A stretch of 46,300 nucleotides of DNA from Rhodocyclaceae bacterium. GTDB lineage: Bacteria; Pseudomonadota; Gammaproteobacteria; Burkholderiales; Rhodocyclaceae. The notes beneath the pieces were generated by a model, which worked only from the letters and a program-made list of their open reading frames with translations, made no database searches and was not told where the DNA came from. The stretch lies in assembly GCA_050305135.1 (NCBI GenBank), contig JBNLET010000242.1, positions 1 through 46,300 of the forward strand, read 5' to 3'. Positions 27,585 to 46,300 of this stretch are shown piece after piece. The translations under genes and the position numbers were made by a program. Position 1 is the stretch's first letter. Each line of letters opens with the position of its first letter.

Positions 27585-29151
<1,567 letters not shown>

Positions 29152-29180
29152 CGCTGGGTTCGGCGCGACCATAAGCGCAT

Positions 29181-29260
29181 ATAGGGATAACATAGGGCGC
29201 ATAAGCGCTATAAGCAGGATATGCCGCCATGGCGTGGAAATAAACCCTTATCCGATCCTC
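29181..29260. promoter_or_regulatory. candidate enhancer (UAS) repeats: ATAAGCGC / GCGCTTAT-type inverted repeats and a TAGGG direct repeat, upstream of the sigma-54 promoter
   Basis: The sequence is ataagcgcatatagggataacatagggcgcataagcgctataagcagg. ATAAGCGC appears three times, once as an inverted copy. Confidence 0.3.
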
Positions 29261-32444: not shown

Positions 32445-33041
32445 ATGAAGACCGCGGCTTCAACCGCCAGAAGGTTTTTCGCGTTCCAGCTGACGCTGGC
32501 GGTGCTGCTGTTTTCGCTGCCGAGCGTCAGCTTGGTGGCGCAGTCCTTCGGCGAGCGGCGGGTGCATGTCGGTCTGAAGCTGTTCCGCACGCTGCTGGCG
32601 GCCGACACCGACAACGGCAGCAAGCTCGATGCCGACGGCAAGCTGCCGGTCTACCTGGCCTACGCCGACGATGATCGCGATGCGCGCGACTACGCCCGCA
32701 GCCTGTCCGTCGGCATGAAATCGGTGCGCGGCATCGAGGTCCGGGTGGAGGTGGCCGCGTTGTCGGAGCTGCTGCAGGGCGACATCGCGCCGGCGGCGAT
32801 CTTCGTCGCCCAGCCCCTCGAGGATGCCGAGATCGCGCAGCTGGTACGCTATTCGATCGAGCGCCGGGTGATCGTCTTCTCGCCGTTCGAAGGCGACGTC
32901 GAGAAGGGTGTGCTGGGCGGTATTTCGGTGGAGGCCACGGTGCGGCCACTGATCAACATGCGCACGCTGGCGGCCAGCGGCGTGGCGATCAAGGGTTTCT
33001 ACCTCAAGGTGGTGAAGCGCTATGGCGACGGGGACGACTAG
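32445..33041 (+). CDS. periplasmic YfiR-like (DUF4154) protein
   Basis: 198 aa with a signal peptide (MKTAASTARRFFAFQLTLAVLLFSLPSVSLVAQS). The size and context (TonB-receptor / DUF4154 / histidine-kinase trio) are recurrent. The family assignment is from memory and tentative. Confidence 0.5.
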   Translation: MKTAASTARRFFAFQLTLAVLLFSLPSVSLVAQSFGERRVHVGLKLFRTLLAADTDNGSKLDADGKLPVYLAYADDDRDARDYARSLSVGMKSVRGIEVRVEVAALSELLQGDIAPAAIFVAQPLEDAEIAQLVRYSIERRVIVFSPFEGDVEKGVLGGISVEATVRPLINMRTLAASGVAIKGFYLKVVKRYGDGDD

Positions 33042-34665
33042 CTCATCGCCGTCGCCGCCGTCGGCATTGCGCAAGGCGCTGGCCGGCGGAGCGCGCGCGA
33101 TGCAGCCCATCCTGCTGGCATCCGGCTTGCGCACGCATCTGACGATCAGCGCAATCTTCCTGCTGCTGTTCGCATCCTTCGTCTTTTCGCTCGGCCGCTA
33201 CTGGCAAGGCACGCTGGAACCGCGGCTCCACCTCACCGCCGAGACCCAGGCCAGGATCCTCGCCCAGTCACAGGCGGCCGCGCTGGTCGAGGCGATCGAG
33301 CACGGCCGGTCCGATCGGCTGCGGGAGCGGCTGTTCGATCTGATGCAGGAGATCCTGATCGTCGAGGATCCCGCCACCGGCGGGCGCATCGTGCTCGGGC
33401 TGGGCCTGCAGATGGACTACGAGTCGGTGCCCGTGGCGCGGGGCTCGGTGGATCTGCATGAGGGCATCAGTCGCTGCGGGCGCTGCTTCAAGGCCTCGAT
33501 ACCGCTGATCGGGCAGAGCGGCCAGTTGCTCGGCGTGGCGGACTTCCTGCTCAGTCCGCGCTACTTCGACACGCTGGCCGCCGAAATGCGCTCCAAGCTG
33601 ATCGCCGAATCGAGCATCGCGATGCTGCTGATGGTGGTGGTGTGGATCACGATGCTGGTGATGTTCCATCGGCTGCACAAGGCCAAGAAGGCGATCGAGG
33701 CCTCCGACCGGGCGAAGACCCGCTTCATGGCCAACGTGACGCACGAACTGCGCACGCCGCTCAATGCCATCCTCGGCTACACCCAGCTCTACAAGCAGGA
33801 TCGGGACCTGATGGCCAGCCACGGCCAGGGCATATCGTCCATCGACCGCAGCGCCGAGCACCTGCTGCTGATGATCAACGACATCCTCGACTTCTCGCGC
33901 ATGGGCGAGGACAACCTGGTGCTGCATCCGAGCGAGGTCGCGCTGGCCGGCTTCCTGTCCACGCTGGTCGAAATGACCGAGGTGCGGGCACGGCTGAAAG
34001 GCATTCGGCTGGAGCGCCGATTCGAGCCGGCGCTGCCGGCCGTCGTCCAGTTGGACGACAAGCGTCTGCGGCAGGTCTTGCTGAACCTGCTCGGCAATGC
34101 GGTCAAGTTCACCGAACGAGGCTGCGTGATCTTCGCGGTCGAGCGGCTCGACAAGCGGGGCGGCAAGACCGCTCGGCTGCGTTTCAGCATCCGCGACAGC
34201 GGCATCGGTATCGGCAGGGAGGAACTCGACAGCATCTTCATCGCGTTCCGGCAGCTGGACAATTCGATCACCCGCGCAGAGGGGTCGGGCCTGGGGCTGA
34301 CGATCAGCCAGCAACTGGTCGGGCTGATGGGATCCCAGCTCAGGGTCGAAAGCGAGCCGGGCGTCGGCAGCCACTTCTGGTTCGACATCGTGGTGCCGCT
34401 GCTGGCCGAGGCGGCGCAGCCCGAGGCACTGCCGTCCGGGCCCGAGCCGCCCGCCGGGCCCGGTCTTCGCCTGCCGCCCGCCGGCTATCTGGAGTCCCTC
34501 GCCGAGCAGGTCGGCCGCCACAACGTGCTGGCGGTCCGATCGCTGCTGGGCGAGCTGGAAGATCGGCCGGAATACCGCGAATTCCTGGCCTACGTGCAGC
34601 CCTTCGTGCGCAGCTACCGCTTCCGCCATCTGCTCGACTGGCTGGAGCGGGAAGCGAAGCAGTAA
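33022..34665 (+). CDS. membrane sensor histidine kinase (2 TM + periplasmic sensor, HisKA, HATPase_c)
   Basis: 547 aa. The H-box is FMANVTHELRTPLNAILGY, and the N, G1 and G2 boxes are LLNLLGNAVKF, DSGIGI and GSGLGL. The start at 33022 overlaps the upstream gene by 20 nt; an alternative ATG is at 33100. Confidence 0.8.
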   Translation: MATGTTSSSPSPPSALRKALAGGARAMQPILLASGLRTHLTISAIFLLLFASFVFSLGRYWQGTLEPRLHLTAETQARILAQSQAAALVEAIEHGRSDRLRERLFDLMQEILIVEDPATGGRIVLGLGLQMDYESVPVARGSVDLHEGISRCGRCFKASIPLIGQSGQLLGVADFLLSPRYFDTLAAEMRSKLIAESSIAMLLMVVVWITMLVMFHRLHKAKKAIEASDRAKTRFMANVTHELRTPLNAILGYTQLYKQDRDLMASHGQGISSIDRSAEHLLLMINDILDFSRMGEDNLVLHPSEVALAGFLSTLVEMTEVRARLKGIRLERRFEPALPAVVQLDDKRLRQVLLNLLGNAVKFTERGCVIFAVERLDKRGGKTARLRFSIRDSGIGIGREELDSIFIAFRQLDNSITRAEGSGLGLTISQQLVGLMGSQLRVESEPGVGSHFWFDIVVPLLAEAAQPEALPSGPEPPAGPGLRLPPAGYLESLAEQVGRHNVLAVRSLLGELEDRPEYREFLAYVQPFVRSYRFRHLLDWLEREAKQ

Positions 34666-34793
34666 AGCGGCCCGCGGATCGCAGCCGTTCCGACGGCGAT
34701 CGGCGGCGGGAGCGGCGACGTCGAGACGCCGAAGCGGCCATCGGCATCTTGCCGACAGGCCACCAGCCGTTGCCATGATGAAATTCGGATCCG

Positions 34794-34824
34794 TGACATA
34801 AAATGTCTTGACATTATATGTCAC
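34794..34824. promoter_or_regulatory. perfect palindrome GTGACATAAAATGTC-TTGACATTATATGTCAC overlapping -35 (TTGACA)/-10-like elements of the PspA-flotillin operon promoter; candidate operator
   Basis: Read directly from the sequence, about 60 bp upstream of the ATG at 34884. It is the only AT-rich patch in an otherwise GC-rich intergenic region. The 8-bp arms GTGACATA/TATGTCAC flank an internal ATGTC/GACAT. Confidence 0.4.
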
Positions 34825-34883: not shown

Positions 34884-35300
34884 ATGAAGCAACTACAACA
34901 GCAGTTGCGCGGCATCGACGACGCGGTGTCGTCGGTCATGGGAGGGCTGTCGGTACAACTGCATCCGATACCCGGCGACGTGCCCGTGCTGCAGCTCAGC
35001 ATCGAGGGGCGCGACGAGCTGCCGGTGTTCGTGACGAGTTCCGACGCCCAGGTTCTGTGCATGTGCTTCCTGTGGCGCGATGACGAGGTCGATGCCGCGA
35101 AGCGCCTCGGCCTGCTCGAAACCATGCTCGAGCTGAACCCGTCGATTCCGCTGTCTTCGTTCGGCAAGGTGGGCGACCAGTTCGTGCTGTTCGGTGCGCT
35201 CAGCCGCAGTTCCGGTCTGGCCGACATCGCCGCCGATGTTGCCGCCCTCAGCGACAACGCGCTGGACGCCCTCGGCGCTTTGGCCGAATACCTCAACTAA
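34884..35300 (+). CDS. YjfI-like (DUF2170) small cytoplasmic protein, first gene of the operon (tentative family assignment)
   Basis: 138 aa from the ATG at 34884 with a good AAGGAGA RBS. The size and position, immediately upstream of a PspA-family gene, match the E. coli yjfI-yjfJ arrangement. Confidence 0.5.
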   Translation: MKQLQQQLRGIDDAVSSVMGGLSVQLHPIPGDVPVLQLSIEGRDELPVFVTSSDAQVLCMCFLWRDDEVDAAKRLGLLETMLELNPSIPLSSFGKVGDQFVLFGALSRSSGLADIAADVAALSDNALDALGALAEYLN

Positions 35301-35312
35301 CGGGAGCCCGGA

Positions 35313-36029
35313 ATGTCCGTCATCAACAAGATCGTCACGCTGCTGCGCGGGTCCATCCGCGAGATCGGCGAAAGCATCGTCGACAACAACGCCGACAGGA
35401 TCTACGAACAGGAGATCCTGGACGGCAAGAACAGCATCGACCAGGCCAAGAAGGACCTGGCCGGTGTCGTCGCCAAGGAAATGCAGAGCGCTCGCGAGAT
35501 GGATCGTCTGCAGGGCGAGATCGAGCGCTACGAAGGCACGGCGGTGGAGGCGCTGGGCAAGGGGCAGGAGGCGCTGGCCGAGGAGGTGGCGGGACGGGTC
35601 GCCGAGCTGGAGGCCGAACTCGAAGTGCAGACCCGCGCCCACGCCAACTTCGCGCTCCAGGTCGGCCAGTTGAAGGACCTGATCAAGAGCGCCGAGGCCA
35701 AGGTGCGGGAGCACGAGCGGGAGATCGCAGCGGTGCGCGCGACCGAAAGCGTCTACAAGGCGAGCCAGTCGATTTCGGACAGCATCGTCAGTTCGGGCTC
35801 CAGGCTGGGATCGGCGCGGGAGTCGCTGGAGCGGATCAAGAAGCGCCACGAGGATTTCGCCGACCGTCTTGCGGCGGCGGAAAGACTCGACGCCGAACTG
35901 GGCGAAAAGGCGCTCGACGCCAAGCTCGATGCCGCGGGAATCGGCGCCGACGCGGAGCGCCGAAGTCGCGTGCTGGCGCGCATCAAGGCGCGGCAGGAAG
36001 CGGCCCGGGGCGGCAGCGAAAAGGCATGA
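35313..36029 (+). CDS. PspA/IM30 (Vipp1/YjfJ) family protein, ESCRT-III-like coiled-coil
   Basis: 238 aa. The PspA-like N-terminus is MSVINKIVTLLRGSIREIGESIVD…YEQEI…, and the long heptad coiled coil matches the PspA_IM30 architecture. Confidence 0.8.
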   Translation: MSVINKIVTLLRGSIREIGESIVDNNADRIYEQEILDGKNSIDQAKKDLAGVVAKEMQSAREMDRLQGEIERYEGTAVEALGKGQEALAEEVAGRVAELEAELEVQTRAHANFALQVGQLKDLIKSAEAKVREHEREIAAVRATESVYKASQSISDSIVSSGSRLGSARESLERIKKRHEDFADRLAAAERLDAELGEKALDAKLDAAGIGADAERRSRVLARIKARQEAARGGSEKA

Positions 36030-36355
36030 GCCTGGGCCGCAAGCCGGCGCGCTGGCAGAGCTCGGATCGCGCCATCAAAGCCGTGCAGATCGCCTTCGAC
36101 GTGGAGCAGAACGTACTCGACGCGGTACGCCGCTCGGCCTTCGAAAACGATCGCTCGACGCCGGACGAGATCCGTCATCTGCTCGGCCTGCCGATATCCG
36201 GCCGGCCCAAGCGCCCGCGCCTGACCGTTTCGCTGACGCCCGACGACTACGACCTGCTGGCCCGTCGCTATGGTCTCGATGCCGCGGACCGCCTCGGCAT
36301 CAAGGAGCAGGTGACGCGGGAACTGATCGCGTTCGCCGCCGCCCGCGACCAATGA
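36026..36355 (+). CDS. small hypothetical protein with two ribbon-helix-helix-like segments
   Basis: 109 aa with an ATGA overlap to the upstream gene. KRPRLTVSLTPDDYDLLARRYG resembles a CopG/ParD-type RHH beta-strand plus helix, and AIKAVQIAFDVEQNVLDAVRRSA is a second similar unit. Confidence 0.45.
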   Translation: MSLGRKPARWQSSDRAIKAVQIAFDVEQNVLDAVRRSAFENDRSTPDEIRHLLGLPISGRPKRPRLTVSLTPDDYDLLARRYGLDAADRLGIKEQVTRELIAFAAARDQ

Positions 36356-36415
36356 GGCCGATGCTATTGTCCTGTAACGATCGCTTTGTCCGGATGTCTT
36401 GCCTGGGATGTGAAC

Positions 36416-37063
36416 ATGATCGGCTTTTATGACGCAGCCACGAGTTTTCCGACCGCGCTGCTGACCGTATTGCTCGCGGCAGTACTGGGCTATTGGCTGC
36501 TGGCCATCGTCGGGCTGGTCGAATTCGACGACGGCGGGCTGTCGCTCGACATGGACGTGGAGATGGACGGCGTCGAGCTGGGCGCGGTGGCGAGCTACCT
36601 GGTGGCGTTCGGTCTGAGCGGTGTGCCGATCTCGGTGGTCGTGACGCTGATCGTGCTGCTCGCATGGACGCTGTGCTGCCTGGCCGCGATGTGGCTGCTG
36701 CCGCTGCTGCCGGGTTCGGTGCCGGGCGCGCTCGGCGGAATCGCCGCCCTGGTGGTGTCGCTCGCTGCCGCGCTGCCGGTGACGGCGGCGGTGCTCCGAC
36801 CGATGCGTGGCCTGTTCGTCACCCATGCTGCGCGCTCGAACGCCAGCCTGATCGGCGAGTCCTGCAAGATCCTCACCCGCAGCGTCGATGCCGGCTTCGG
36901 CCGGGCCGAGGTCAGTACGCGCGGCGCCAGCCTGAACATCAAGGTATGGGCGCAGGCACCGAATGCGCTGAGACGCGGCAGCGTGGCGCGAATTCTCGAC
37001 TACGACGCTGCGAGCGGCCGCTACCAGGTCGTCCCGGAAGACGTCATCGGGGCTGAAAAATAA
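36416..37063 (+). CDS. YqiJ/NfeD-like inner-membrane protein (multi-TM N-domain + C-terminal OB-fold beta-domain), the usual flotillin partner
   Basis: About 215 aa, with an alternative upstream ATG at 36386. It has 4 predicted TM helices, then …GESCKILTRSVDAGFGRAEVSTRGASLNIKVWA…GSVARILDYD…YQVVP…, typical of the NfeD C-terminal domain. It sits directly upstream of the flotillin gene, as in yqiJK/yuaFG. Confidence 0.65.
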   Translation: MIGFYDAATSFPTALLTVLLAAVLGYWLLAIVGLVEFDDGGLSLDMDVEMDGVELGAVASYLVAFGLSGVPISVVVTLIVLLAWTLCCLAAMWLLPLLPGSVPGALGGIAALVVSLAAALPVTAAVLRPMRGLFVTHAARSNASLIGESCKILTRSVDAGFGRAEVSTRGASLNIKVWAQAPNALRRGSVARILDYDAASGRYQVVPEDVIGAEK

Positions 37064-37114
37064 TCGAACGACAACGGCCGGCACGGTCCGGCTTCGACTG
37101 AGCAAGGGGAATCC

Positions 37115-39226
37115 ATGGAACCGATCTACGTCGCAGTGGGCATTCTCGCCCTGCTGGTACTGATCCTGTTCGCCGCGTTCGCGAAGTTCTACCGCAAGGT
37201 GGAGCAGGGCTACGCGATGATCGTCAACACCTTGCGCTCCGAGCCCGAGGTGACGTTCACGGGTCGGATGGTCTATCCGATCATCCACAAGGCCGAGCTG
37301 ATGGACATCGCGCTGAAGACGATCGAGATCGATCGCACCGGCAACGAGGGCCTGATCTGTCGCGACAACATCCGCGCCGACATCAAGGTGAAGTTCTTCG
37401 TGCGCGTGAACAAGACCGCCGAGGACGTGCTCAAGGTGGCCCAGGGCATCGGCTGCGACCGGGCATCCAACCACGACACGCTGGAAGAGCTCTTCTCGGC
37501 GAAGTTTTCCGAAGCGCTCAAGACGGTCGGCAAGGCGATGGATTTCGTCGACCTGTACCAGGCCCGCGACCGGTTCCGCGACGAGATCATTCGCCAGATC
37601 GGCGACGACCTGTCCGGTTACGTGCTGGAAGACGCTGCGATCGACTTTCTCGAGCAGACGCCGCTGGCCAAGCTCGACCCGGACAACATCCTCGACGCCC
37701 AGGGCATCAAGAAGATCACCGAGCTGACCGCGGTCGAGCACGTGCGCACCAACGACCTGCGCCGCGACGAGGAAATGCAGATCAAGAAGAAAGACGTCGA
37801 GACGCGCGAGGCGATGCTCGAACTCGAACGCCAGCAGGCCGACGCCGAGGCCAGGCAGCAGCGCGAGGTGGCCTCGGTGCGGGCGCGCGAGATGGCCGAG
37901 ACGGCGCGGGTCGAGTCGGAGGAGCACGCCCGTTCCGAACTGGCCCGGCTGGAGGCCGAGCAATCGATCGCCGTGCAGCAGGAGAACACCCAGCGCGAAA
38001 AGGAGGTGGCCGAGAAGAACCGCCAGCGCGCGATCGCCATCGAGGAGGAGAAGGTGACCCGGGCGCGCGATCTCGAAATCGTCGATCGCGAGAAGGAAGT
38101 GACGCTGCAGCGTATCGAGAAGGACAAGGCGGTCGAGCTGCAGAAGAAGCACATCGCCGACGTGGTGCGCGAGCGCATCGTCGTCGAGCGCACCGTGGCG
38201 GAACAGGAAGAGGCCATCAAGGAGCTGCGCACGGTGGCCGAGGCCGAGCGCACGCGCAAGGCCACGGTGGTGATGGCGGAAGGCCAGGCGGAAGAGAAGC
38301 TGGTCATCGAGGTCAAGGCCGCCGAGGCGCAGGAACGGCGAGCCCACCACCGCGCGACCGAGGAGCTGACGCTGGCCGAGGCCCGGCTCAAGGTGGCCGA
38401 GAAGGAGGCCGACGCCAAGAAACGCGAGGCCGAGGGCATCGAGGCGCTGGAGGCGGCCGCCGGCCTGGCCCAGGCCAAGGTCATGATGGTCAATGCCGAT
38501 GCCAGCGAGAAGCAGGGGCTGGCCGACGCCAAGGTGAAGATCGCCGAATCCGAGGCGGTCGAGAAGTACGGCCTGGCCGAAGCCGAAGCGCTGCGCGCCC
38601 GGCTGGAGGCCGAAGCGGAGGGCAAGCGCAAGCTCGGACTGGCCGAGGTCGAGGTGCGTACGGCGGATGCCGAGGCCATCGTCGAGTCCGGCATGGCCGA
38701 GGCGAAGGTCGTCGAGGCACGCTTCGCGGCTGAAGCCAACGGGCTGCGCGAGAAGTTCGGCGCCATGTCCGCGATGACCGATGCGACCCGGGCGCACGAG
38801 GAGTTCCGCATGCAGTTGGACAAGTCGCACATCGAGACGCTGAAGGGCATCGACGCGCAGACCGGCATTGCGCGCGAACAGGCCGAGGTGCTGGGCAAGG
38901 CGCTGGGCAATGCGCACATCGACATCGTCGGCGGCGAAGGCGACTACTTCGAACGCTTCGTCAATGCGCTGGCGGTCGGCAAGGGCATCGACGGCGCGAT
39001 CCACAAGAGCGATACGCTGCAGATCGCCTTGAAGGACCATCTGAACGGCGATCGCGACTTGGTCGGCGACGTCAGGGACCTGGTCGGCGCGCTCGGCCAA
39101 TCGTCGGACGAATTGCAGAACCTGAGCGTCGCTGCGCTGGTGGCGCGCATTGCGCGGGACGGCACCGAGCAGCAGAAGAGTGCATTGAGCACGTTGATTG
39201 GCGGCCTCGGCAAAGGATTGCAGTGA
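37115..39226 (+). CDS. flotillin-family SPFH/Band-7 protein (YqiK/FloT-like), unusually long (703 aa) with extended EA-rich coiled coil
   Basis: It has an N-terminal TM/hairpin (IYVAVGILALLVLILFAAFA). The SPFH domain runs through about aa 200. After it comes roughly 400 aa of flotillin-type AEAE/coiled-coil repeats (…AEAEALRARLEAEAEGKRKLGLAEVEV…). A GGGGA RBS precedes the start. Confidence 0.85.
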   Translation: MEPIYVAVGILALLVLILFAAFAKFYRKVEQGYAMIVNTLRSEPEVTFTGRMVYPIIHKAELMDIALKTIEIDRTGNEGLICRDNIRADIKVKFFVRVNKTAEDVLKVAQGIGCDRASNHDTLEELFSAKFSEALKTVGKAMDFVDLYQARDRFRDEIIRQIGDDLSGYVLEDAAIDFLEQTPLAKLDPDNILDAQGIKKITELTAVEHVRTNDLRRDEEMQIKKKDVETREAMLELERQQADAEARQQREVASVRAREMAETARVESEEHARSELARLEAEQSIAVQQENTQREKEVAEKNRQRAIAIEEEKVTRARDLEIVDREKEVTLQRIEKDKAVELQKKHIADVVRERIVVERTVAEQEEAIKELRTVAEAERTRKATVVMAEGQAEEKLVIEVKAAEAQERRAHHRATEELTLAEARLKVAEKEADAKKREAEGIEALEAAAGLAQAKVMMVNADASEKQGLADAKVKIAESEAVEKYGLAEAEALRARLEAEAEGKRKLGLAEVEVRTADAEAIVESGMAEAKVVEARFAAEANGLREKFGAMSAMTDATRAHEEFRMQLDKSHIETLKGIDAQTGIAREQAEVLGKALGNAHIDIVGGEGDYFERFVNALAVGKGIDGAIHKSDTLQIALKDHLNGDRDLVGDVRDLVGALGQSSDELQNLSVAALVARIARDGTEQQKSALSTLIGGLGKGLQ

Positions 39227-39795
39227 GCCAGGCAAGAACCCCGCAGCGCTGTCCGGGCTGCCGCGGCGGCGACTGGTCGCATGCCCGCCTGGCCGAGCAC
39301 TTGGCGGCCTGGCGCTGCGGCGCCTGTGGCGGGCACTTGCTGTCGCTGGCGGACTATCGGCGCTGGCGCAGCGTACATCCAGCCGAGCCCGCGCTGGGCG
39401 AAGCGGAGGCTGCGCAGGGAGGCGATGCGCAATCCGACGCGGCACGGCTGTGCCCGGCTTGCGGCCGGATCATGAGTCGGCTGCGCGGCGGCAGCGATCC
39501 GGCGTTCGTGCTGGACCGCTGCAACGCTTGCCAGTGGCTTTGGCTGGACGCCGGCGAATGGCGACGGCTGCAGGGCAACGAACTGCACCGGCAGCTCGAC
39601 CGCGTGCTGAGCGACGGTTGGCAGCGGCGGCTCGAGGCCGACGACCGGGCCGCTCGAAGGGAGGACGACCTGCGCCGCCGGCTCGGCGACGAGGTCTTCG
39701 ACGAGGCGCTGCGCATCCGGGCCTGGCTCGAGCGCCTGCCGAGGCGGCAAGAGGTGTTGCGCCTGTTGGGCGGCGCGCCCCAGGACGGCGACTGA
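39223..39795 (+). CDS. double zinc-ribbon protein (two CxxC-N18-20-CxxC modules) with Arg/Glu-rich C-terminal helix
   Basis: 190 aa from a GTG overlapping the flotillin stop. The cysteine pairs are CPGC…CGAC and CPAC…CNAC. Its stop abuts the ATG of the giant gene (TGAATGATG). Confidence 0.5.
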   Translation: MSQARTPQRCPGCRGGDWSHARLAEHLAAWRCGACGGHLLSLADYRRWRSVHPAEPALGEAEAAQGGDAQSDAARLCPACGRIMSRLRGGSDPAFVLDRCNACQWLWLDAGEWRRLQGNELHRQLDRVLSDGWQRRLEADDRAARREDDLRRRLGDEVFDEALRIRAWLERLPRRQEVLRLLGGAPQDGD

Positions 39796-42700
39796 ATGAT
39801 GGCCGAACGCAACAGCGCCGAAGACACGCCGGCCGGCGACAGCGCCAGCTACGAACTGCTCCGCGAGCGTCTGCGCAGGCAGGCCGAGCGGCTCGCGGCC
39901 AAGACCGCTGCGCTCAACGAAGCGCGCCTGGGCACCTTCGGCCGCTCGGAAATGGAGCTCCTGGCGCGGCTCAAGGCGCGCACCGACAACAACTGCGTCG
40001 CGCGCGACATCGTGCGCATCGGCGATCTGCTGCTGTTCGGCTACAACGTCTTCGTCGGACTGCGGCAGGAAATCCGCGCCGAGGACGTCTTCGCGCTGTT
40101 CCGTCTCGAGCAGACCGCCGCCGGCACCACACTCGAGGCGGTGCCGCTGCAGGGGAGTCTCTTGGCCGAGGGGCGCTTTGCGGCCGACTTCCGCGAACTC
40201 TATACGTACTACAAGCATGCCAGCCTGACGCAGTTGCGAGTGGCCGGCGAGACGCTGCTGGCCGCCTTCCGGATCGGCCAGAAGCTGCAGGATCTGCGCG
40301 TCTTCCGCTGGCGCATCGAGGCCGACGGCAGTGTCCGCTACATCGACAACCGGGGCGAGCGCGACATCGCGCTGCCGGCCTCGCACGATTTCGAATGGAC
40401 CGCGCTGAGCAGGGCCGATCACGTCGGCGGCAAGCACCCGCACGTGAACATCCTCGACACCGTCTTCGTCGAGACCGTCGGCGGCGATCTGACGGTCAAG
40501 ATCGAGAACAACACCGAGAGCGGGCTCGGCATCTTCAGCGAACCGGTGGACGACCGCAACCAGTCGCTGGCCGACGCCGACTTCGCCTACGCCCGGCTCG
40601 GCTCGCTGATCCTGATCAAGGTCCGCCCGTACCGGGAAAAGCAGGACCGCTACCTGGTGTTCAATTCGATCACCAGCCAGGTGCTGCGCGTCGACGCCAT
40701 CGGCCGTTCCTGCGTCCAGTTGCCCGAGGACCACGGCATCATCTTCCCGGGCGGCTACTACCTGCAGTCGGGCGAGTCGAAGCGCTTCGAGCTGCCCGGC
40801 CAACTGGCCGAAGGTTTGCTGTTCAAGCGCATGCTGCGCTCGCCCAACGGCGAGGACGTGCTGTACGTCTTCTACCAGCCGGAAGAGGGCCACTACGCGC
40901 TGTTCGCCTACAACCTGATCGAAAAACGCCTCGCCGCGCCGATCGTCTCGAACGGCTATGCGCGCTTAGAGGACGGCCGCATCCTGGTCATGCAGGCGGA
41001 AGGCGCGGAGGCCTCGCGCCAGCACCCGATGCAACTGTGGCATACGCCGTTCTTCAGCGACGAACATGCGGCGCGAACGCCGGCGGCCGAGGACTTCTTC
41101 GGCCGGATCGGCAATGCGGACCTGGTGCGGGGGATTTCCGAGCTGCATGCGGTTGCCAGGGCGGCCGCCACCGGCAGTCCGACCCGTGCCTCGTACGAGG
41201 CACTGATCCGCCAGGCGATGCGCTGCCTCGATGGGTACTTCTGGCTGGCCGAGCCCGAGACCGGCGGCGTCGCCGAAGAATTGCGCGGCATTCTCGCCAG
41301 TGCGCGCGCGACGCTGGACGAGTTCGACAAGGTCGAATCGATCCGACGCAACAGCGAACAGGCGTTGTCGCGCAGCGAGCAGAAGCAGCGCGAACTGCTG
41401 TCGTCCATCGCCGGCATGCTGTGGAAGACCCCCACCGATTTCGTGCAGGCCCTCGCGAGCCTGCGAGAACAGCGCGGCCATCTGCACGGCCTGCGCGATC
41501 TGCGCTACGTGGACGCCGGGCGGGTCGAATCGATGGATGCCGCGCTGGCCAGCGAGGAAGCGCGGATCGGCACTCGGGCGGTGGCCTTCCTGGCGGACGA
41601 GCATGCCTTCGACGGCCAGGGCAGGGAGCTCGAACGCCTCGCCCAGGCGCTGCCGGCCAGCGAAACGAGCGAGGCGATCGATGCATTGGTGAGCGAGCTC
41701 GACGCGCTGGCGGCCGGCTTCGACCTGCTGACCGAACACCTCGGCAGCCTCACCGGCGGCGACGCTGTCGTGCGTACCCGCATCCTGGATCGGATCGCCG
41801 CCGTCTATGCCGAACTCAACCGGACACGGGCCCAGGCGCGGCAGCGGCGCAGCGGCCTGGGGGCGAGCGAGGCCGCGGCCGAGTTCGGCGCCCAGTTCAA
41901 GCTCTTCGGCCAGGCCGTCGACAATGCGCTGGAACTGGCCGATACGCCCGAGAAATGCGACGAATTCCTGACCCGTCTGCTGGCGCAACTGGAGGAGATC
42001 GAAGGCCGCTTTGCCGAGCACGAGCGCTTCCTCGACGACGTCGCAGGCAAGCGCGAAAGCGTCTACGAGGCCTTGTCGAGCCGCCGCCAATCGCTGCTCG
42101 AAGCGCGCCAGCGGCGCAGTCAGGCGCTTGCCGAAGCGGGCCGGAGAATCCTGCAGGGCATTCCACGGCGGCTGGCCAAGCTCGCCGACGCCGACGCGGT
42201 GCATGCCTACTTCGCGTCCGACGTTCTGATCGCCAAACTCAGGCAGCAGATCGAGTCGATCCGCGAACTCGGCGCCGCGGTGCTGGCCGACGAGCTCGCG
42301 ACCCAGCTCAAGACCGCCCGCGACCAGGCGATCGGTGCCGTGCGCGACCGCAGCGAGCTGCTCTCCGCCGACGGCAACACGCTGCGCTTCGGCAAACACG
42401 CGTTCACGATCAATGCGCAGCCGCTCGACCTGACCCTGGTGCCGCGGGACGGGAGCCTGAGCTACCACCTCAACGGAACCGACTACTTCTCACCGGTGCG
42501 CGACGCCAGGCTCGACACCTTGGGCCCGTTCCTGTCCCAGGCACTGCTGTCCGAAACGCCTGAGCTGTATCGGGCCGAATATCTGGCCGGCGCGCTGCTG
42601 AGCGAATGCATCGCCGGCCAGGGACCGATCGAGTGCGAGCTGCTGCAGAAGCATTGCCTGGAAGGCGAAGCCGGCCTCGAGAAGATGCTGGCCGTGGTGC

Positions 42701-45060
42701 GCCGATTCGCGGCGGATCGCTACCAGGAGGGCTACCAGAAGGGCGTGCACGACCACGATGCGGCCCGCCTGCTGCAGGCGCTGGTGCCGATGCAGAGCGA
42801 AGCCGGCTTGCTGGCATATTCGCCCGAGGCGCGCGCATTGTCGTATCTGTACTGGCATTTCGGAGCGGACGCGCCGGATCGTGCAGCACTTTCGCGCATG
42901 GCGCGGTCGAGCACCGCGATCGAAGCCTCGTTCGGCGACCGCAGCGCGCTGTCCAGGGTCGAGTGTGCGCTGGCCGAGCAGTTGGCCGCCTTCGCGCCGC
43001 GTTTCGGCTTCGACGGCGCAGACCGCCCGCTGTGCGCTGGCGCCGCGCGCTACCTGGTGCGCCAGCTGGCGGCTCCGCGCGGCGGCGAGGCCTGGGTCGT
43101 GTCTGGCAGCGGCGCCGATCTGGCCGGCGCGCTGCTGAAGCAACTGGAACAAGAGGGTCGCCTGTCCGACTGGCAGTCCGACCTGGCCGCCGCCTCGGCG
43201 CAGGATCGCTGGTTGATGGCGAGCGACTGGGCAGCCGCGTTCGCCGGCCGACAGGCGGCCGGCCCTTGGGTCATGGACGCCGCGACAGTACTGCTGGGCG
43301 GTTCGGAGCGACAACGGCACAACGTGCGCCTCGACGCCCGGGTCGACGGCCTGCTCGGCGAGCACGAGCGGATCACGGACGGGGCCTCGGTCCTCAACCT
43401 GAACGATTTCTGGCGCCGCTACGACGATCACGCGACAAAGATCGTACCCGCCTTCCGCGCGCTGCAGCAACTGCGCATGTCCCTGGTCAAGGAGGAGCGG
43501 CGCCGCCTCGGGCTCGAGCAGTTCAAGGCCAATCCGCTCTCGTCCTTCGTCCGCAACCGGCTGATCGACCAGGTCTATTTGCCGATCATCGGCGACAACC
43601 TGGCGAAGCAGATCGGTGCCGCCGGCGCGGCCAACCGCAGCGATCGCATGGGCATGCTGCTGCTGATTTCGCCGCCCGGCTACGGCAAGACGACGCTGAT
43701 GGAGTACGTGGCGGATCGCCTCGGCCTGGTCTTCGTTCGCATCAACTGCCCGGCGCTCGGCCACGGCGTCAGCTCGATCGATCCGTCCGGCGCCGCGAGC
43801 GCCGCCGCCCGGCAGGAGCTCGAGAAGCTTAACCTCGGCTTGGCGATGGGCAACAACGTGATGCTGTATCTGGACGACATCCAGCACACCCGGCCCGAGT
43901 TCCTGCAGAAGTTCATTTCGCTCGCCGACGGCACGCGGCGCATCGAAGCCGTGCCCGACGGCAAGCCCGTGACCTGCGACCTGCGCGGCAAGCGCTTCGC
44001 GATCGTCATGGCCGGCAACCCCTACACCGAATCGGGCGAGCTGTTCAGGATTCCCGACATGCTGGCGAACCGGGCCGACATCTACAACCTGGGTGACGTG
44101 CTGTCCGGGCACGAGTCACTGTTTGCCGCCTCCTATCTCGAAAATGCGCTGACCGCCAACCCGCTGCTGATGCCGCTCGCCTCGCGCAGTCCGAGCGATG
44201 TCCACCTGCTGCTGCGGATGGCCGACGGAGAGGACATCCCAGGCAGCGAGTTCGCGCATCCGTACAGCGGCGTCGAACTGAACGAACTGGTCGAGCTGCT
44301 GCGACGAATGAGCCGTGCCAGGGCCCTGCTGCTGAAGGTCAACCGGGCCTACATCGAATCGGCCGCGCAACAGGACGCCTACCGCGACGAGCCTCCGTTC
44401 AAGCTCCAGGGCAGCTACCGCAACATGGCCAAGCTGGCGGCCAGGATCACGCCGCTGATGAGCGAGGCGGAACTCGACGAACTGCTGCGAGACCACTACC
44501 GCGGCGAGGCGCAGACGCTGACCGCCGGGGCGGAGGAAAACCTCCTCAAGCTCGCCCACCTGCTCGGCTCGCCGAGCGCGGAAGAACGCCTGCGCTGGAA
44601 AGAGATTTGCGAAGAATTCGTGCGCCGTCGCAAGCTCGGCGGCCCCGACGCCGACGGCAGCATGCGGCTGGCCGGCAGCGTGCTAGAGGTGGCCCGCGCA
44701 GTCGAAGCGCTGAAGCCCGGGGCGGGGGTCGATCGCGCACTGCGCGACGGGCTCGACGGCATCAACAAGGCCGTGGCGGAGATCCGGCCCAGCGTCAACG
44801 TCGAGACGCCGCAGCCCGACCTGAGTGGCGTCGAGTCGGCACTGCGGGAAATGCAACAGGCCTACGAAAAGGTGTTGTTGCCACTCGTCAATGCCACCTA
44901 TCTCAAGATGCGCCTCGACCACAGCCTGTGGGACGAGGTCAAGAACATCACCGCGATGATGGAGAAGGCGTCGCTCAAGTCGTGTGCCGACAAATCGCCG
45001 ACGGCCGGGAAGACAACGAAGGCAAGCCGGACGAAGGGCAGTCCGGCAAGCAAGGGTTGA
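39796..45060 (+). CDS. giant 1754-aa protein with a single recognisable AAA_5 (MoxR/dynein/McrB-type) P-loop ATPase module near aa 1285-1435; the remaining ~1250 N-terminal residues and ~300 C-terminal residues are unassigned
   Basis: The frame is uninterrupted and GC3-rich. Walker A is LLLISPPGYGKTTLMEY (nt ~43669-43695), and Walker B is MLYLDDIQH (nt ~43861-43881). The sensor/arginine-finger region FAIVMAGNPYTESGELFRIPDMLANRADIY matches the AAA_5 pattern (…NP…G…L..AL.NR). Several coiled-coil stretches are present. Confidence 0.8.
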   Translation: MMAERNSAEDTPAGDSASYELLRERLRRQAERLAAKTAALNEARLGTFGRSEMELLARLKARTDNNCVARDIVRIGDLLLFGYNVFVGLRQEIRAEDVFALFRLEQTAAGTTLEAVPLQGSLLAEGRFAADFRELYTYYKHASLTQLRVAGETLLAAFRIGQKLQDLRVFRWRIEADGSVRYIDNRGERDIALPASHDFEWTALSRADHVGGKHPHVNILDTVFVETVGGDLTVKIENNTESGLGIFSEPVDDRNQSLADADFAYARLGSLILIKVRPYREKQDRYLVFNSITSQVLRVDAIGRSCVQLPEDHGIIFPGGYYLQSGESKRFELPGQLAEGLLFKRMLRSPNGEDVLYVFYQPEEGHYALFAYNLIEKRLAAPIVSNGYARLEDGRILVMQAEGAEASRQHPMQLWHTPFFSDEHAARTPAAEDFFGRIGNADLVRGISELHAVARAAATGSPTRASYEALIRQAMRCLDGYFWLAEPETGGVAEELRGILASARATLDEFDKVESIRRNSEQALSRSEQKQRELLSSIAGMLWKTPTDFVQALASLREQRGHLHGLRDLRYVDAGRVESMDAALASEEARIGTRAVAFLADEHAFDGQGRELERLAQALPASETSEAIDALVSELDALAAGFDLLTEHLGSLTGGDAVVRTRILDRIAAVYAELNRTRAQARQRRSGLGASEAAAEFGAQFKLFGQAVDNALELADTPEKCDEFLTRLLAQLEEIEGRFAEHERFLDDVAGKRESVYEALSSRRQSLLEARQRRSQALAEAGRRILQGIPRRLAKLADADAVHAYFASDVLIAKLRQQIESIRELGAAVLADELATQLKTARDQAIGAVRDRSELLSADGNTLRFGKHAFTINAQPLDLTLVPRDGSLSYHLNGTDYFSPVRDARLDTLGPFLSQALLSETPELYRAEYLAGALLSECIAGQGPIECELLQKHCLEGEAGLEKMLAVVRRFAADRYQEGYQKGVHDHDAARLLQALVPMQSEAGLLAYSPEARALSYLYWHFGADAPDRAALSRMARSSTAIEASFGDRSALSRVECALAEQLAAFAPRFGFDGADRPLCAGAARYLVRQLAAPRGGEAWVVSGSGADLAGALLKQLEQEGRLSDWQSDLAAASAQDRWLMASDWAAAFAGRQAAGPWVMDAATVLLGGSERQRHNVRLDARVDGLLGEHERITDGASVLNLNDFWRRYDDHATKIVPAFRALQQLRMSLVKEERRRLGLEQFKANPLSSFVRNRLIDQVYLPIIGDNLAKQIGAAGAANRSDRMGMLLLISPPGYGKTTLMEYVADRLGLVFVRINCPALGHGVSSIDPSGAASAAARQELEKLNLGLAMGNNVMLYLDDIQHTRPEFLQKFISLADGTRRIEAVPDGKPVTCDLRGKRFAIVMAGNPYTESGELFRIPDMLANRADIYNLGDVLSGHESLFAASYLENALTANPLLMPLASRSPSDVHLLLRMADGEDIPGSEFAHPYSGVELNELVELLRRMSRARALLLKVNRAYIESAAQQDAYRDEPPFKLQGSYRNMAKLAARITPLMSEAELDELLRDHYRGEAQTLTAGAEENLLKLAHLLGSPSAEERLRWKEICEEFVRRRKLGGPDADGSMRLAGSVLEVARAVEALKPGAGVDRALRDGLDGINKAVAEIRPSVNVETPQPDLSGVESALREMQQAYEKVLLPLVNATYLKMRLDHSLWDEVKNITAMMEKASLKSCADKSPTAGKTTKASRTKGSPASKG

Positions 45061-45132
45061 ACCAAGCTCGCGAGCGAACTTCCCGCCGATTGATCGGTGC
45101 GGCAGCAGGGGACTGGCCGGCAGGCGCGTGCG

Positions 45133-45345
45133 CTACTCGGCCCAGTCCCGGCGCACGAATGCTCGCCACAGGCCCGGGTCGTGCGCACTCGGGGTGGCCT
45201 GCCCGATGAGGGCGTCGAGGCTGTCGGTAGGGCCGAGGTGGGCGCGGCCGGCAAGTCGGCCGGCTCGGTAGATCAGCAATTCGGGCAAGTCGTCGGGCAG
45301 GTAGTCGCCTATGAAGGGGGCGTGTTCGTCGAGGTCGAGCCACAT
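45133..45345 (-). CDS. 70-aa ORF, possibly a real small protein or the C-terminal remnant of a gene truncated by the adjacent AT-rich insertion
   Basis: MWLDLDEHAPFIGDYLPDDLPELLIYRAGRLAGRAHLGPTDSLDALIGQATPSAHDPGLWRAFVRRDWAE has native-like GC. Its 5' end abuts the point where GC content collapses, about 45350. Confidence 0.3.
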   Translation of the reverse strand: MWLDLDEHAPFIGDYLPDDLPELLIYRAGRLAGRAHLGPTDSLDALIGQATPSAHDPGLWRAFVRRDWAE

Positions 45346-45592
45346 TCGTCATGTTGTCGAAAATGCATGACATGCATTCATTGTGCCGAAACTCGACGAG
45401 GTTCCGTTGTCGATTTCTAGTTTGCTTCTCTGGGGCGCCGAGAACGCTGGCCACTTGAATGGTGCTGGAGCCGAGTGCAACCGGGCCGATGCTTGAGTAT
45501 GGGTCGATCTGAGCCGTATGGATTCTTGCGTCTTGCGAGTAGCCTATTAGCCTCCAAACCAACTCTGTGCCCATCGAACAGGTCGGTGCCTT

Positions 45593-45985
45593 CTAAAGAG
45601 AAAATGGCTGCATCTTACTGATTCTGTGATCCCATGCGCCCCTTTCGAACAAAGTTAACGCTCTCTGAGATATATCTTCGTCATGAAATCCCGTCAATGT
45701 AATTCCCACCTTCAGGAATACAATGAATCCGAGATAGTGCATTGGATTGGGGTCGGCTGTCATGATCTTTGCCAAGACCAGATGTGACTCTTCTCCGAAA
45801 ATATTGACGCCAAGAAACGTAATATTCTCCATTTGGCGTCCGAAGCCAATGTGAGTAAGTTTGTAAGGGGTTGAGGAGGCGTATGCCAACTTCATGAACG
45901 ACCTAAACTCTACGCGCTGCTTGAGCCAATTCTTGCTTATATGCTCTGCCGGACCCAGGATATTCTCAACATCGGCTGGAAGCAT
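45593..45985 (-). CDS. hypothetical 130-aa protein encoded in low-GC (foreign) DNA
   Basis: The ORF lies inside the ~45350-46180 AT-rich segment. There is no convincing RBS and I recognise no motifs. Confidence 0.3.
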   Translation of the reverse strand: MLPADVENILGPAEHISKNWLKQRVEFRSFMKLAYASSTPYKLTHIGFGRQMENITFLGVNIFGEESHLVLAKIMTADPNPMHYLGFIVFLKVGITLTGFHDEDISQRALTLFERGAWDHRISKMQPFSL

Positions 45986-46181
45986 TCCAAATGTCAGCGA
46001 TCCGGCGCCGCTGTAAGGTCTTAGGTTGAAGGGCAGGGGAAACGCACTTATTTGTCATCGTTGGCGCCTTGAAATGCCACCGTCGTCGACTTTCTGAAAA
46101 AGTCGTTCACTTTCAGTGCGATATGCAAGCATCTTGTGAACTCTCTGGATTTCCGGTCCACTCTCGCTTTTTGGGAAAGCG

Positions 46182-46300
46182 ATGGGATCGAAGACATTGG
46201 CGGCGTACTTTTCCGAGATCGAGGATCCCCGACGCACGGGGTTCGCACATCGACATGACCTGGTGGAGATCCTAGTGGTCGCGACGTGTGCCTTGTTCAG
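46182..46300 (+). mobile_element. 5' end of an ISAs1-family (H-repeat-associated) transposase gene; the IS continues beyond the window
   Basis: Translation from the ATG at 46182 gives MGSKTLAAYFSEIEDPRRTGFAHRHDLVEILVVATCALF. This matches the conserved ISAs1 N-terminal domain (…HF..I.DPR……H.L.DIL.I..CA.L.G…). Confidence 0.6.

Follow-up and report, generated by a model that had tools for sequence, protein, structure and literature searches.

The window analysed here is a 46,300-nucleotide stretch of a Rhodocyclaceae genome (contig JBNLET010000242.1), and toward its end lies an operon that includes a giant ATPase gene. The elements of this operon are, in order of position:

34793-34824, no strand: 15-nt inverted repeat overlapping a TTGACA hexamer (arms 93% complementary)
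34884-35300, +: DUF2170 protein of the YjfI/BacA type (PF09938, E=5e-27; the start is an ATG preceded by AAGGAG)
35313-36029, +: PspA/IM30 protein of the YjfJ/BacB type (PF04012, E=2e-35)
36026-36355, +: small conserved protein, 109 aa, possibly a ribbon-helix-helix regulator (weak FitA-like RHH match, E=0.06)
36416-37063, +: multi-transmembrane (TM) protein in the YqiJ/YuaF position, 215 aa (3-4 hydrophobic segments; position)
37115-39226, +: flotillin-family (SPFH) membrane protein, 703 aa (BLASTP to YqiK; cluster name)
39223-39795, +: double zinc-ribbon protein, 190 aa (Zn_ribbon_TFIIB, E=1e-6; two CxxC...CxxC pairs)
39796-45060, +: giant ATPase, 1754 aa, orthologue of PA3728/BacE (intact reading frame, GC3, Pfam, homologues)

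Start and stop codons overlap or abut within the operon. For example, the start of the 109-residue gene overlaps the PspA stop, the zinc-ribbon start overlaps the flotillin stop, and the ATG of the giant gene follows straight after the zinc-ribbon TGA. An NtrC-type regulator gene is also found near the operon.

The giant gene is one unbroken open reading frame. Its length by itself is no proof of a gene, since the window is 68% GC and also holds overlapping artefact frames of 1121 and 1230 amino acids. The frame is identified as a real gene by its codon-position bias and its full-length homologues. Its GC3 of 0.87 matches that of the neighbouring genes (0.84-0.90), bearing out the first-pass annotation of a clean frame with native composition. 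The product has no TM-like segments and is a soluble, cytoplasmic protein of ∼190 kDa.

The inverted repeat, 60 nt upstream of the first gene, is a candidate operator/promoter for the operon. A sigma-70 promoter scan gave nothing above background, and no acceptable sigma-54 −24/−12 element was found upstream of 34884, whereas a sigma-54 promoter has been reported upstream of bacA in Pseudomonas aeruginosa.

A conserved three-gene membrane module

The window flotillin aligns with Escherichia coli YqiK in BLASTP (E=8e-37, 28% identity over 460 aa) and, judged by that match, the upstream neighbour is a true flotillin. The cluster to which it belongs at >90% identity bears the name ‘flotillin family protein’. 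A single N-terminal TM helix (aa 1-29) is followed by KFYRK, and the bulk of the protein is predicted to be cytoplasmic. The multi-TM protein has no BLASTP similarity to E. coli YqiJ and no Pfam matches; we call it YqiJ-like by its position and because Ravi et al. equated this gene with YqiJ/YuaF (PMC11237479). The same two-gene core, a multi-TM protein and then a flotillin, makes up E. coli yqiJ-yqiK and Bacillus subtilis yuaF-floT. Those operons, however, lack the giant ATPase, and the window flotillin is ∼150 residues longer at its C-terminus than theirs.

A flotillin gene lies upstream of the giant gene, on the same strand, in 76/76 loci with upstream sequence, and the two genes are direct neighbours except in three of these. 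Beta- and Gammaproteobacteria, Myxococcota, Actinobacteria, Acidobacteriota and a Clostridia metagenome-assembled genome (MAG) are represented among the loci. Wherever the flank is long enough, a YqiJ-like gene precedes the flotillin gene. The YqiJ-like multi-TM protein, the flotillin and the giant ATPase form a conserved three-gene membrane module, and such linkage denotes functional association, not direct contact. A soluble AAA+ protein of this size, always found with a single flotillin lineage in six or more phyla, offers a handle on flotillin function, assembly and dissolution.

The DUF2170-PspA pair joins this module only in Proteobacteria. A linked PspA occurs in about 31-34 of the 76 loci, all of them proteobacterial; more than half of the loci, including every one outside Proteobacteria, lack it and retain the flotillin and YqiJ-like genes. 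The constant partner is therefore the flotillin together with the YqiJ-like protein, and not PspA, which had earlier been placed in a joint lattice with flotillin. The window DUF2170 protein matches the NCBIfam BacA model at E=8e-11, below the model cutoff, and its fold is described in the literature as that of a CesT/Tir-like chaperone. The 109-residue protein occupies the same position in a few Gammaproteobacteria and in those Betaproteobacteria loci that bear the PspA pair. In ten loci a zinc-ribbon gene separates the flotillin gene from the giant gene; these come from Betaproteobacteria, apart from one MAG labelled Gammaproteobacteria. One more zinc-ribbon copy is placed downstream of the giant gene, in locus L032.

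No conserved partner was found downstream of the giant gene, where only small gene clusters recur across loci. These are a PLD-like group and a ∼200-residue membrane protein whose sequence looks rhomboid-like. A vWA/MIDAS partner, which the first-pass annotation expected of a MoxR-type ATPase, was sought next to the gene: none is conserved beside the ATPase, and no vWA domain was found among the proteins of the window operon.

Domain architecture of the giant ATPase

The predicted domain order is N-terminal helices, a beta-propeller of ∼6 blades, a helical-bundle rod, a middle domain, the AAA+ module and a variable tail. The corresponding features are:

39892-41241, +: DUF3686 region, aa 33-482 (PF12458, E=1.2e-191)
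41095-42360, +: helical rod, aa 434-855, helices up to 58 residues (predicted structure)
41602-41853, +: DUF7902, aa 603-686, inside the helical rod (PF25472, E=9.2e-23)
42367-43530, +: middle domain, aa 858-1245, a small beta-sheet and helical domain (high-confidence prediction)
42718-42759, +: invariant middle-domain motif R975-x3-G-Y-x2-G-x-H985-D986-x-D988 (conservation)
43543-44145, +: AAA+ alpha/beta core, aa 1250-1450 (AAA_5 profile, motifs, AF2)
43669-43695, +: Walker A SPPGYGKTT, aa 1292-1300, with K1298
43861-43878, +: Walker B MLYLDD, aa 1356-1361, with D1360/D1361
43939-43980, +: predicted pre-sensor-1 hairpin, aa 1382-1395 (AF2)
44017-44085, +: sensor-1 N1408 (NPYTESG, aa 1408-1414) and Arg finger R1426 (ANRADIY, aa 1424-1430)
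44146-44625, +: AAA+ lid and post-lid helical region, aa 1451-1610
44410-44421, +: LQGSYRNM with candidate sensor-2 R1542 (invariant in 27 and 79 orthologues)
44626-45057, +: variable C-terminal tail, aa 1611-1754, helices and then a disordered K/S/T-rich end (conservation, pLDDT)

The DUF3686 match covers profile positions 2-448 of 448. This region, rich in invariant polar residues, comprises N-terminal helices (aa 17-62) and a beta-propeller-like domain (aa 69-415), modelled by AF2 as 25 strands grouped by four, or ∼6 blades of 4 strands. In Foldseek searches against the PDB, the matches to the propeller region were all beta-propellers, with IFT-A best at 1.5e-7 and WDR91, DPP-IV, prolyl oligopeptidase, the clathrin terminal domain, Sec12 and TolB following at 1e-4 to 1e-3; all had poor TM-scores. 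IFT-A and clathrin heavy chain, among the top matches, have the same order of a propeller and then helices. The rod resembles talin- or spectrin-like helical bundles in structure. The invariant site of the middle domain could represent a second activity or a regulatory site. Toward the C-terminus, conservation drops to 0.09-0.44 in the tail, and the last ∼24 residues have pLDDT <50. The ∼1250 N-terminal residues, once read as a motif-free coiled coil, are thus better described as a propeller followed by a helical rod and another conserved domain, with two Pfam families among them. Known enzymatic domains had been named as a possible alternative for this region; it does fall in a Pfam family, but one without a known enzymatic function.

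The giant ATPase carries one AAA+ module near its C-terminus, which its motifs and predicted fold assign to the MoxR/dynein superclade. The remainder of the C-terminal half is predicted to be helical, in keeping with the single module first described, and the SPPGYGKTT, MLYLDD, NPYTESG and ANRADIY motifs all lie exactly where they had been located. Pfam AAA_5 matches at 27.7 bits against a gathering cutoff of 22 (profile positions 2-126 of 139) and is above cutoff in 27/27 orthologues. The AF2 model places strands at aa 1382-1385 and 1392-1395, between the helix at 1367-1375 and the sensor-1 strand at 1401-1406, with a local pLDDT of ∼70-84. The profile and this predicted pre-sensor-1 hairpin uphold the earlier assignment of an AAA_5 unit of MoxR/dynein type. 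Beta2 and the helix after it are joined by a conserved stretch of 18 residues (NCPALGH..S.DP), which may or may not be a helix-2 insert and is modelled with low confidence as a loop. Walker B is an invariant LYLDD, in which Asp stands where hhhhDE has its catalytic Glu, and R1542 is a candidate sensor-2 by its position.

When the AAA module was searched as a single sequence against 1.8 billion proteins, only 843 relatives were returned, which marks the module as a distinct lineage. Searching the PDB with the full-length protein, with a profile of 45 sequences and with the middle domain gave either P-loop-level matches at E>0.02 or none, and no solved relative. Aligning the AAA-module profile to E. 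coli RavA with hhalign gave 12% probability, a value that is uninformative because RavA was a single-sequence target.

The MoxR family (RavA, CbbQ, NorQ) shares with the window module an AAA_5-type core, a predicted pre-sensor-1 hairpin and a sensor-1 Asn that lies in an NP context ahead of E..G...P..L..R, and CbbQ and NorQ are among its best structural matches. One rival reading is that the ATPase leaves the flotillin scaffold itself untouched and uses it as a platform, acting as a MoxR-style chaperone in the maturation, insertion or extraction of other proteins, membrane or peripheral, that are gathered in the flotillin microdomain. We consider this unlikely. MoxR proteins proper are stand-alone proteins of ∼300-500 aa, whereas the window protein is six times larger, with ∼1250 residues of N-terminal domains, and has DD rather than DE in Walker B. 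AAA_3, the Pfam MoxR model proper, matches only 8/27 orthologues, and weakly. In addition to the missing vWA/MIDAS neighbour, no candidate client gene is conserved, as the flotillin and YqiJ-like genes are the sole constant neighbours.

A second possibility is that the protein is a Vps4-like disassemblase that recycles polymers of PspA, the bacterial ESCRT-III, its target being the PspA/YjfJ protein encoded four genes upstream. The classical/Vps4 AAA clade lacks a pre-sensor-1 hairpin in the established AAA+ classification, and one is predicted here. Further, the classical AAA profile PF00004 matches over profile positions 1-38 only, and a Pfam search found no MIT domain in the giant ATPase. 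The presence of PspA and DUF2170 in the window operon and in the proteobacterial loci noted above speaks for such a role, as do the co-induction of PA3728-PA3732 in P. aeruginosa (PMC12041424) and the ESCRT-III/Vps4 analogy that Ravi et al. draw for PspA-AAA+ associations in general (PMC11237479). Nonetheless, with most loci keeping flotillin and YqiJ-like genes and no linked PspA, we regard a PspA disassemblase as improbable, more so than a chaperone.

Family membership and the P. aeruginosa Bac system

The giant protein is a typical member of the DUF3686/DUF7902 family of giant AAA+ proteins. At E≤1e-3 it has 6082 homologues, with full-length matches of 60-75% identity in Rhodocyclales and Burkholderiales and of 43-63% identity across phyla, so the ‘orphan’ of the first-pass annotation belongs to a widespread family. 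With the LQGSYRNM motif as a search pattern, full-length copies were recovered from at least 595 species in many phyla (43-75% identity overall). Architecture is constant: family proteins of 1590-2036 aa place the AAA module at about residues 1200-1650, and the window protein shows the family's single C-terminal AAA+ module at about residues 1250-1600 of a 1600-2000 aa protein. It also has all of SPPGYGKTT, DDIQH, MAGNPYTE, PDMLANRAD and LQGSYRNM, which are invariant in 79 orthologues.

The orthologue in P. aeruginosa is BacE (PA3728, PA14_16190), which is 48% identical over 1733 aa and has the same Pfam domains. It is encoded in bacABCDEF, the ‘biofilm-associated cluster’, whose order of DUF2170, PspA, YqiJ-like, flotillin and giant ATPase genes is common to the window, each window protein matching the corresponding Pseudomonas frame. 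The window adds the 109-residue protein after PspA and the double zinc-ribbon protein before the ATPase, whereas the PLD-like bacF, downstream in P. aeruginosa, has no counterpart after 45060. Five of the six published RT-PCR primers (PMC10948618) map exactly onto the P. aeruginosa locus.

Co-transcription and induction by stress or phage are known from the P. aeruginosa literature. bacE is co-transcribed with bacA-D and is 8.9-fold up in a bacA mutant (PMC10948618), and phage infection induces PA3728-PA3732, an effect present in every infected sample (PMC12041424). On standard carbon sources a pa3728 transposon mutant shows normal growth (bioRxiv 10.1101/2025.04.01.646390), a result that attaches no phenotype to the gene. 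Ravi et al. (2024) described the same operon type and protein architecture as in the window, proposed roles in membrane dynamics, and reported that an abbreviated flotillin/YqiJ/ATPase operon is more widespread, with which our linkage counts agree (PMC11237479). The window gene is thus an ordinary orthologue in a family already catalogued and discussed in print. To that account we add the AAA_5 and pre-sensor-1-hairpin assignment, the conserved middle domain with its HD-x-D motif, and the equivalence to BacE. What this work contributes is a correction of the ‘orphan’ label and a sharper domain map rather than a discovery. Biofilm formation, virulence, stress caused by phage and recurrent mutation in cystic-fibrosis isolates have all been linked to the operon of the P. 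aeruginosa orthologue.

Defence systems often contain giant NTPases, and the operon might be a conflict or anti-phage system in which a flotillin/PspA membrane sensor is coupled to an NTPase, in some species with a PLD-family effector. The phage induction of PA3728-PA3732 fits such a system, as does the PLD-superfamily gene found after the ATPase in at least seven loci besides that of P. aeruginosa. However, the PLD gene is missing from the window and most loci, and induction by phage is the very response that defines ordinary Psp envelope-stress systems. PADLOC gave no matches beyond P-loop noise (IetA, E=0.003). The giant ATPase gene is not mobile: among 72,556 plasmid records 13 have it, and among 50,697 phage records none does. 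Its chromosomal synteny is kept across phyla at 43-63% identity, with no island-like turnover seen. An anti-phage role is accordingly very unlikely.

Possible roles at the flotillin scaffold

Since the giant gene always stands next to a flotillin gene, its product most likely powers the remodelling of a flotillin membrane scaffold. We somewhat favour, over all other readings together, a ring-forming cytoplasmic AAA+ mechanoenzyme that would remodel this scaffold under membrane stress. The giant protein would be the ATPase component of the YqiJ-like/flotillin/ATPase module, and its AAA+ modules, one per chain, would assemble into a ring. ATP binding and hydrolysis, involving K1298, D1360/D1361, N1408, R1426 and R1542, would then move the rod and propeller arms. 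The flotillin (SPFH) oligomer in the cytoplasm, and possibly also PspA polymers in Proteobacteria, would be held by these arms, which would let the scaffold be built up, taken apart or reshaped under membrane stress. The predicted cytoplasmic location of the flotillin bulk, together with an ATPase free of TM segments, is consistent with this remodelling, and the low TM-scores of the propeller matches and the normal growth of the pa3728 mutant count against it.

A narrower version, which we hold only tentatively and would not bet on, casts the protein as a dedicated flotillin motor. Here a ring-forming, midasin/dynein-like mechanoenzyme would grip the flotillin cage with its propeller-rod arm and drive ATP-dependent assembly or disassembly during envelope stress. 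If this were true, SPFH scaffolds would have their first known energy-driven remodeller. Midasin/Rea1 and dynein are likewise AAA_5 motors with long non-ATPase arms, a likeness that is architectural only. They have six AAA modules per chain, whereas the window protein has one and would need to oligomerise, and it has neither a MIDAS domain nor a microtubule-binding stalk. HflK/C-FtsH and Vps4-ESCRT-III provide a working analogy: each couples a membrane scaffold, whether SPFH cage or ESCRT-III/PspA polymer, genetically or physically to an AAA+ protein. Yet FtsH and Vps4 are of the classical AAA clade, FtsH being a membrane protease and Vps4 having a MIT domain, and the window protein has none of these features.

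Databases usually label the family ‘DNA repair ATPase’ or ‘MoxR-like ATPase’, and the PF12458 description reads "ATPase involved in DNA repair". A repair function has in its favour this description, the NCBI product names and weak, P-loop-level RuvB matches; it is hardly credible. Matches to the RuvB models reach 20 bits where the cutoff is 282 and extend over just ∼50 residues around Walker A. The giant ATPase was searched for nuclease, helicase and DNA-binding domains, and none was found. In the literature library searched, nothing linked DUF3686 to DNA repair, or ‘DNA repair ATPase’ to flotillin. The conserved neighbours are all membrane proteins, and ‘DNA repair ATPase’ is a misleading database name that can hide a component of membrane biology.

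The giant gene and its family

The giant ATPase gene is an unbroken ORF of 1754 codons (39796-45060, +), and its ATG abuts the TGA of the preceding gene. Length is no proof of a gene in this stretch (G+C 68%), because ORFs of more than 1000 codons (39198-42563, +, 1121 aa; 35753-39445, -, 1230 aa) overlap real genes in other frames, as does a 649-aa ORF (38944-40893, -); all three are high-GC artefacts. The giant ORF is a real gene, as the first-pass annotation had held, since its third-position G+C (0.87) equals that of its neighbours and full-length homologues exist. The motifs reported there also proved exact in position: Walker A at aa 1292-1300 (nt 43669-43695), Walker B at aa 1356-1361 (nt 43861-43878), and the sensor/Arg-finger motif as NPYTESG (aa 1408-1414) and ANRADIY (aa 1424-1430). 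Directly past the gene, at 45061-46300, G+C falls from ~0.68 to 0.555 and the small ORFs have no Pfam match; a possible boundary of foreign or degraded DNA.

The same annotation called the protein an orphan, motif-free outside its AAA module, and neither description survives. In Pfam, residues 33-482 fall under DUF3686 (PF12458, described as ‘ATPase involved in DNA repair’; E = 1.2e-191, whole profile covered) and residues 603-686 under DUF7902 (PF25472; E = 9e-23), with weak AAA, AAA_22 and AAA_5 matches at residues 1285-1411. Among 5.8 billion proteins searched there were 6082 homologues, the best 120 of which are full-length (1650-1820 aa), 60-75% identical and from Rhodocyclales and Burkholderiales; their names include ‘DNA repair ATPase’ and ‘MoxR-like ATPase’. 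Relatives occur in at least 595 species (scan of one genome per species), and from these 80 loci were compared. Their proteins show 43-63% identity along practically the whole length and represent Beta- and Gammaproteobacteria, Myxococcota, Actinobacteria, Acidobacteriota, Zetaproteobacteria and one Clostridia MAG. The AAA module alone, searched against 1.8 billion cluster representatives, matched 843 proteins at E ≤ 1e-3 and 331 at E ≤ 1e-30, and it lies at about residue 1200-1650 in every full-length member (1590-2036 aa) of that library. These counts and the fixed module position mark a large, old family of constant architecture, sharply apart from other AAA+ lineages. The window protein almost certainly belongs to this DUF3686/DUF7902 family; its gene is an unexceptional orthologue in a family that is catalogued yet uncharacterised.

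Taking the database label ‘DNA repair ATPase’ literally is scarcely credible: beyond the name, such a role has in its favour P-loop-level similarity to RuvB and nothing else, and that similarity falls far under family cutoffs. An anti-phage or conflict system is very improbable, given that PADLOC yielded no match, phage records contain no copy and plasmid records hardly any. Megaplasmid-borne copies were seen in Deinococcus and Hymenobacter.

Domain architecture and the AAA+ module

The protein was modelled with AlphaFold2 as two overlapping halves from 47-sequence alignments (mean pLDDT 77 for the N-terminal and 76 for the C-terminal half). The N-terminal half is predicted to hold helices at aa 17-62, ~25 beta-strands in fours at aa 69-415 and long helices of up to 58 residues at aa 434-855. 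In the C-terminal half, a small sheet and helical domain at aa ~880-1240 (pLDDT >90), which carries an invariant motif, is followed by the AAA+ core (aa ~1250-1450), a lid with additional helices as far as aa ~1610, and a variable tail. No hydrophobic segment was found in the protein, and sequence searches detected no solved structure.

Assigning the core to one MoxR/dynein-type AAA_5 unit, as first suggested, is reasonable. The AAA_5 profile scores above gathering over positions 2-126 of 139 in 27 of 27 orthologues tested; classical AAA (PF00004) matches the window protein over its first 38 profile positions only. The motif MAGNPYTESGxxFxIPDMLANRAD is invariant among orthologues, and we take it to fit the MoxR pattern of a sensor-1 Asn in an NP context, then E..G...P..L..R with an Arg finger. 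A predicted beta-hairpin (aa 1382-1385 and 1392-1395), between the post-Walker B helix and the sensor-1 strand, is in the model the pre-sensor-1 hairpin, which the classical Vps4/FtsH clade lacks. The module is a distinct lineage and not MoxR proper, because AAA_3 matches weakly, in 8 of the 27 orthologues, and because a vWA partner, for which the first-pass annotation advised looking, is absent from the operon proteins and from conserved downstream genes of related loci. A MoxR-style chaperone for client proteins inside flotillin domains is unlikely.

Two features are atypical, Walker B and the pore loop. Walker B reads LYLDD in 79 of 79 orthologues, with Asp at the position where a catalytic Glu is usual and an invariant I-Q-H following; this replacement of DE suggests, from sequence, unusual or slow hydrolysis chemistry. 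No aromatic pore loop was found after strand 2 in the orthologue alignment, so action as a lever or clamp, in the manner of midasin, dynein or MoxR, is favoured over substrate threading.

The operon and its P. aeruginosa counterpart

The giant gene is the last of a tightly packed same-strand operon.

Genes of the operon, with the basis of each assignment
34884-35300, +, DUF2170 / YjfI-like protein (Pfam and other evidence)
35313-36029, +, PspA / IM30 (Pfam)
36026-36355, +, 109-aa protein (weak ribbon-helix-helix match, E = 0.06)
36416-37063, +, 215-aa multi-TM protein (hydrophobic segments)
37115-39226, +, 703-aa flotillin-family protein (similarity to YqiK)
39223-39795, +, 190-aa double zinc-ribbon protein (Pfam, sequence)
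39796-45060, +, giant ATPase (intact ORF)

The 703-aa protein is a homologue of the E. coli flotillin YqiK (BLASTP 8e-37, 28% identity over 460 aa), and the cluster to which it belongs at >90% identity bears the name ‘flotillin family protein [Nitrogeniibacter aestuarii]’; it has no Pfam match, with neither Band_7 nor flotillin even at E ≤ 1. Its single N-terminal TM helix precedes basic residues, which would place most of the protein in the cytoplasm. Its C-terminus is ~150 residues longer than that of YqiK, and the giant ATPase may dock on this extension.

The first operon gene is preceded, 60 nt away, by a 15-nt inverted repeat (GTGACATAAAATGTC / GACATTATATGTCAC, 34793-34824; arms 93% complementary) that overlaps a TTGACA hexamer. 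As a candidate operator, this repeat could be bound by the 109-aa protein, with its weak ribbon-helix-helix match. A search ahead of the window operon revealed no -24/-12 element; sigma-54 dependence is reported for the P. aeruginosa bac operon. Just 5′ of the operon are an NtrC-type sigma-54 response regulator (27585-29207, -), a TonB-dependent receptor (29771-32395, +) and a HisKA/HATPase sensor kinase (33022-34665, +). Farther off is a large multi-PAS GGDEF-EAL protein of c-di-GMP turnover (12412-16158, +; ~1250 aa).

P. aeruginosa carries these genes as its bacABCDEF operon (PMC10948618). The P. aeruginosa orthologue P0289 (1746 aa, ‘DNA repair ATPase’, 3222-sequence cluster) shares 48% identity with the window protein across 1733 residues. 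Its locus runs DUF2170, PspA, 213-aa protein, 688-aa protein, giant ATPase, PLDc_2, YaeQ, RecJ and M4 peptidase, and five of six published PA14 RT-PCR primers match it exactly, at the bacC/bacD, bacD/bacE and bacE/bacF junctions. This identity, gene order and primer placement equate the giant protein with BacE (PA3728 / PA14_16190). The six bac genes are co-transcribed, and BacE rises 8.9-fold in a bacA mutant (PMC10948618). PA3728-PA3732 are induced in every phage-infected sample (PMC12041424) and also in a stressed suppressor strain (PMC13637947). PA3728 is recurrently mutated in cystic-fibrosis isolates (PMC8190622), and a pa3728 transposon mutant grows normally on glucose, succinate and fumarate (bioRxiv 10.1101/2025.04.01.646390). 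We found no study testing the giant ATPase itself.

The conserved unit and a proposed mechanism

The window operon proteins served as queries against the ORFs from the 80 related loci. All 76 loci with any upstream sequence have a flotillin gene ahead of the giant gene on the same strand, and the multi-TM gene is present in every locus with sufficient flank. DUF2170 and PspA occur in ~31-34 loci, exclusively proteobacterial; the zinc-ribbon protein is almost exclusively betaproteobacterial, and the 109-aa protein occurs in Betaproteobacteria and a few Gammaproteobacteria. This distribution makes the multi-TM protein, flotillin and giant ATPase the constant unit and PspA a proteobacterial addition. 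An abbreviated flotillin/YqiJ/ATPase operon has been described as more widely distributed (Ravi et al., PMC11237479). E. coli K-12 has yqiJ-yqiK alone, without the giant ATPase. A Vps4-like PspA disassemblase is quite improbable, being weakened by the lack of linked PspA in most lineages and by the wrong AAA clade.

Downstream of the giant gene, no gene is generally conserved across the related loci. A PLD-like gene follows it in Pseudomonas and a few other lineages; in Pseudomonas this PLDc_2 (HKD phospholipase-D superfamily) gene is bacF/PA3727. In some Pseudomonas loci a ~200-aa membrane protein of putatively rhomboid-like sequence sits before it. These observations come from locus L084 (12260-12952) and from the regions 3′ of the giant gene in L018, L021, L023, L025 and L028. 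The window has neither gene downstream of the ATPase.

The giant protein is soluble, with a single conserved AAA+ module and large domains of protein-binding type, and across the related loci its gene is inseparable from those of a flotillin that faces the cytoplasm and of a small multi-TM protein. Stress-induced co-expression with PspA is known from the literature in one species.

AAA+ proteins generally form rings, and the modules of the giant ATPase may do likewise. Nucleotide cycling would then shift its rod and propeller arms, which would bind the flotillin oligomer and, in Proteobacteria, perhaps PspA polymers too; such binding could assemble, dissolve or reshape the scaffold. Functional partnership with flotillin is probable, direct remodelling of the scaffold a tentative proposal, and the overall picture of an armed ATPase remodelling a flotillin scaffold somewhat favoured. 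The putative lever-arm ATPase of the first-pass annotation is the best reading and partly supported, but it is not new: an ATPase with a long arm on the flotillin system had already been proposed in print.

On the P. fluorescens SBW25 megaplasmid pQBR103 (L083, 86.5-103.6 kb), genes of E. coli type, yjfK-yjfL-yjfM-yjfC (DUF2491, DUF350, DUF1190 and glutathionylspermidine-synthase family), run directly into the multi-TM/SPFH/‘DNA repair ATPase’ triad. This arrangement merges the two PspA-context operon types of Ravi et al. (PMC11237479).
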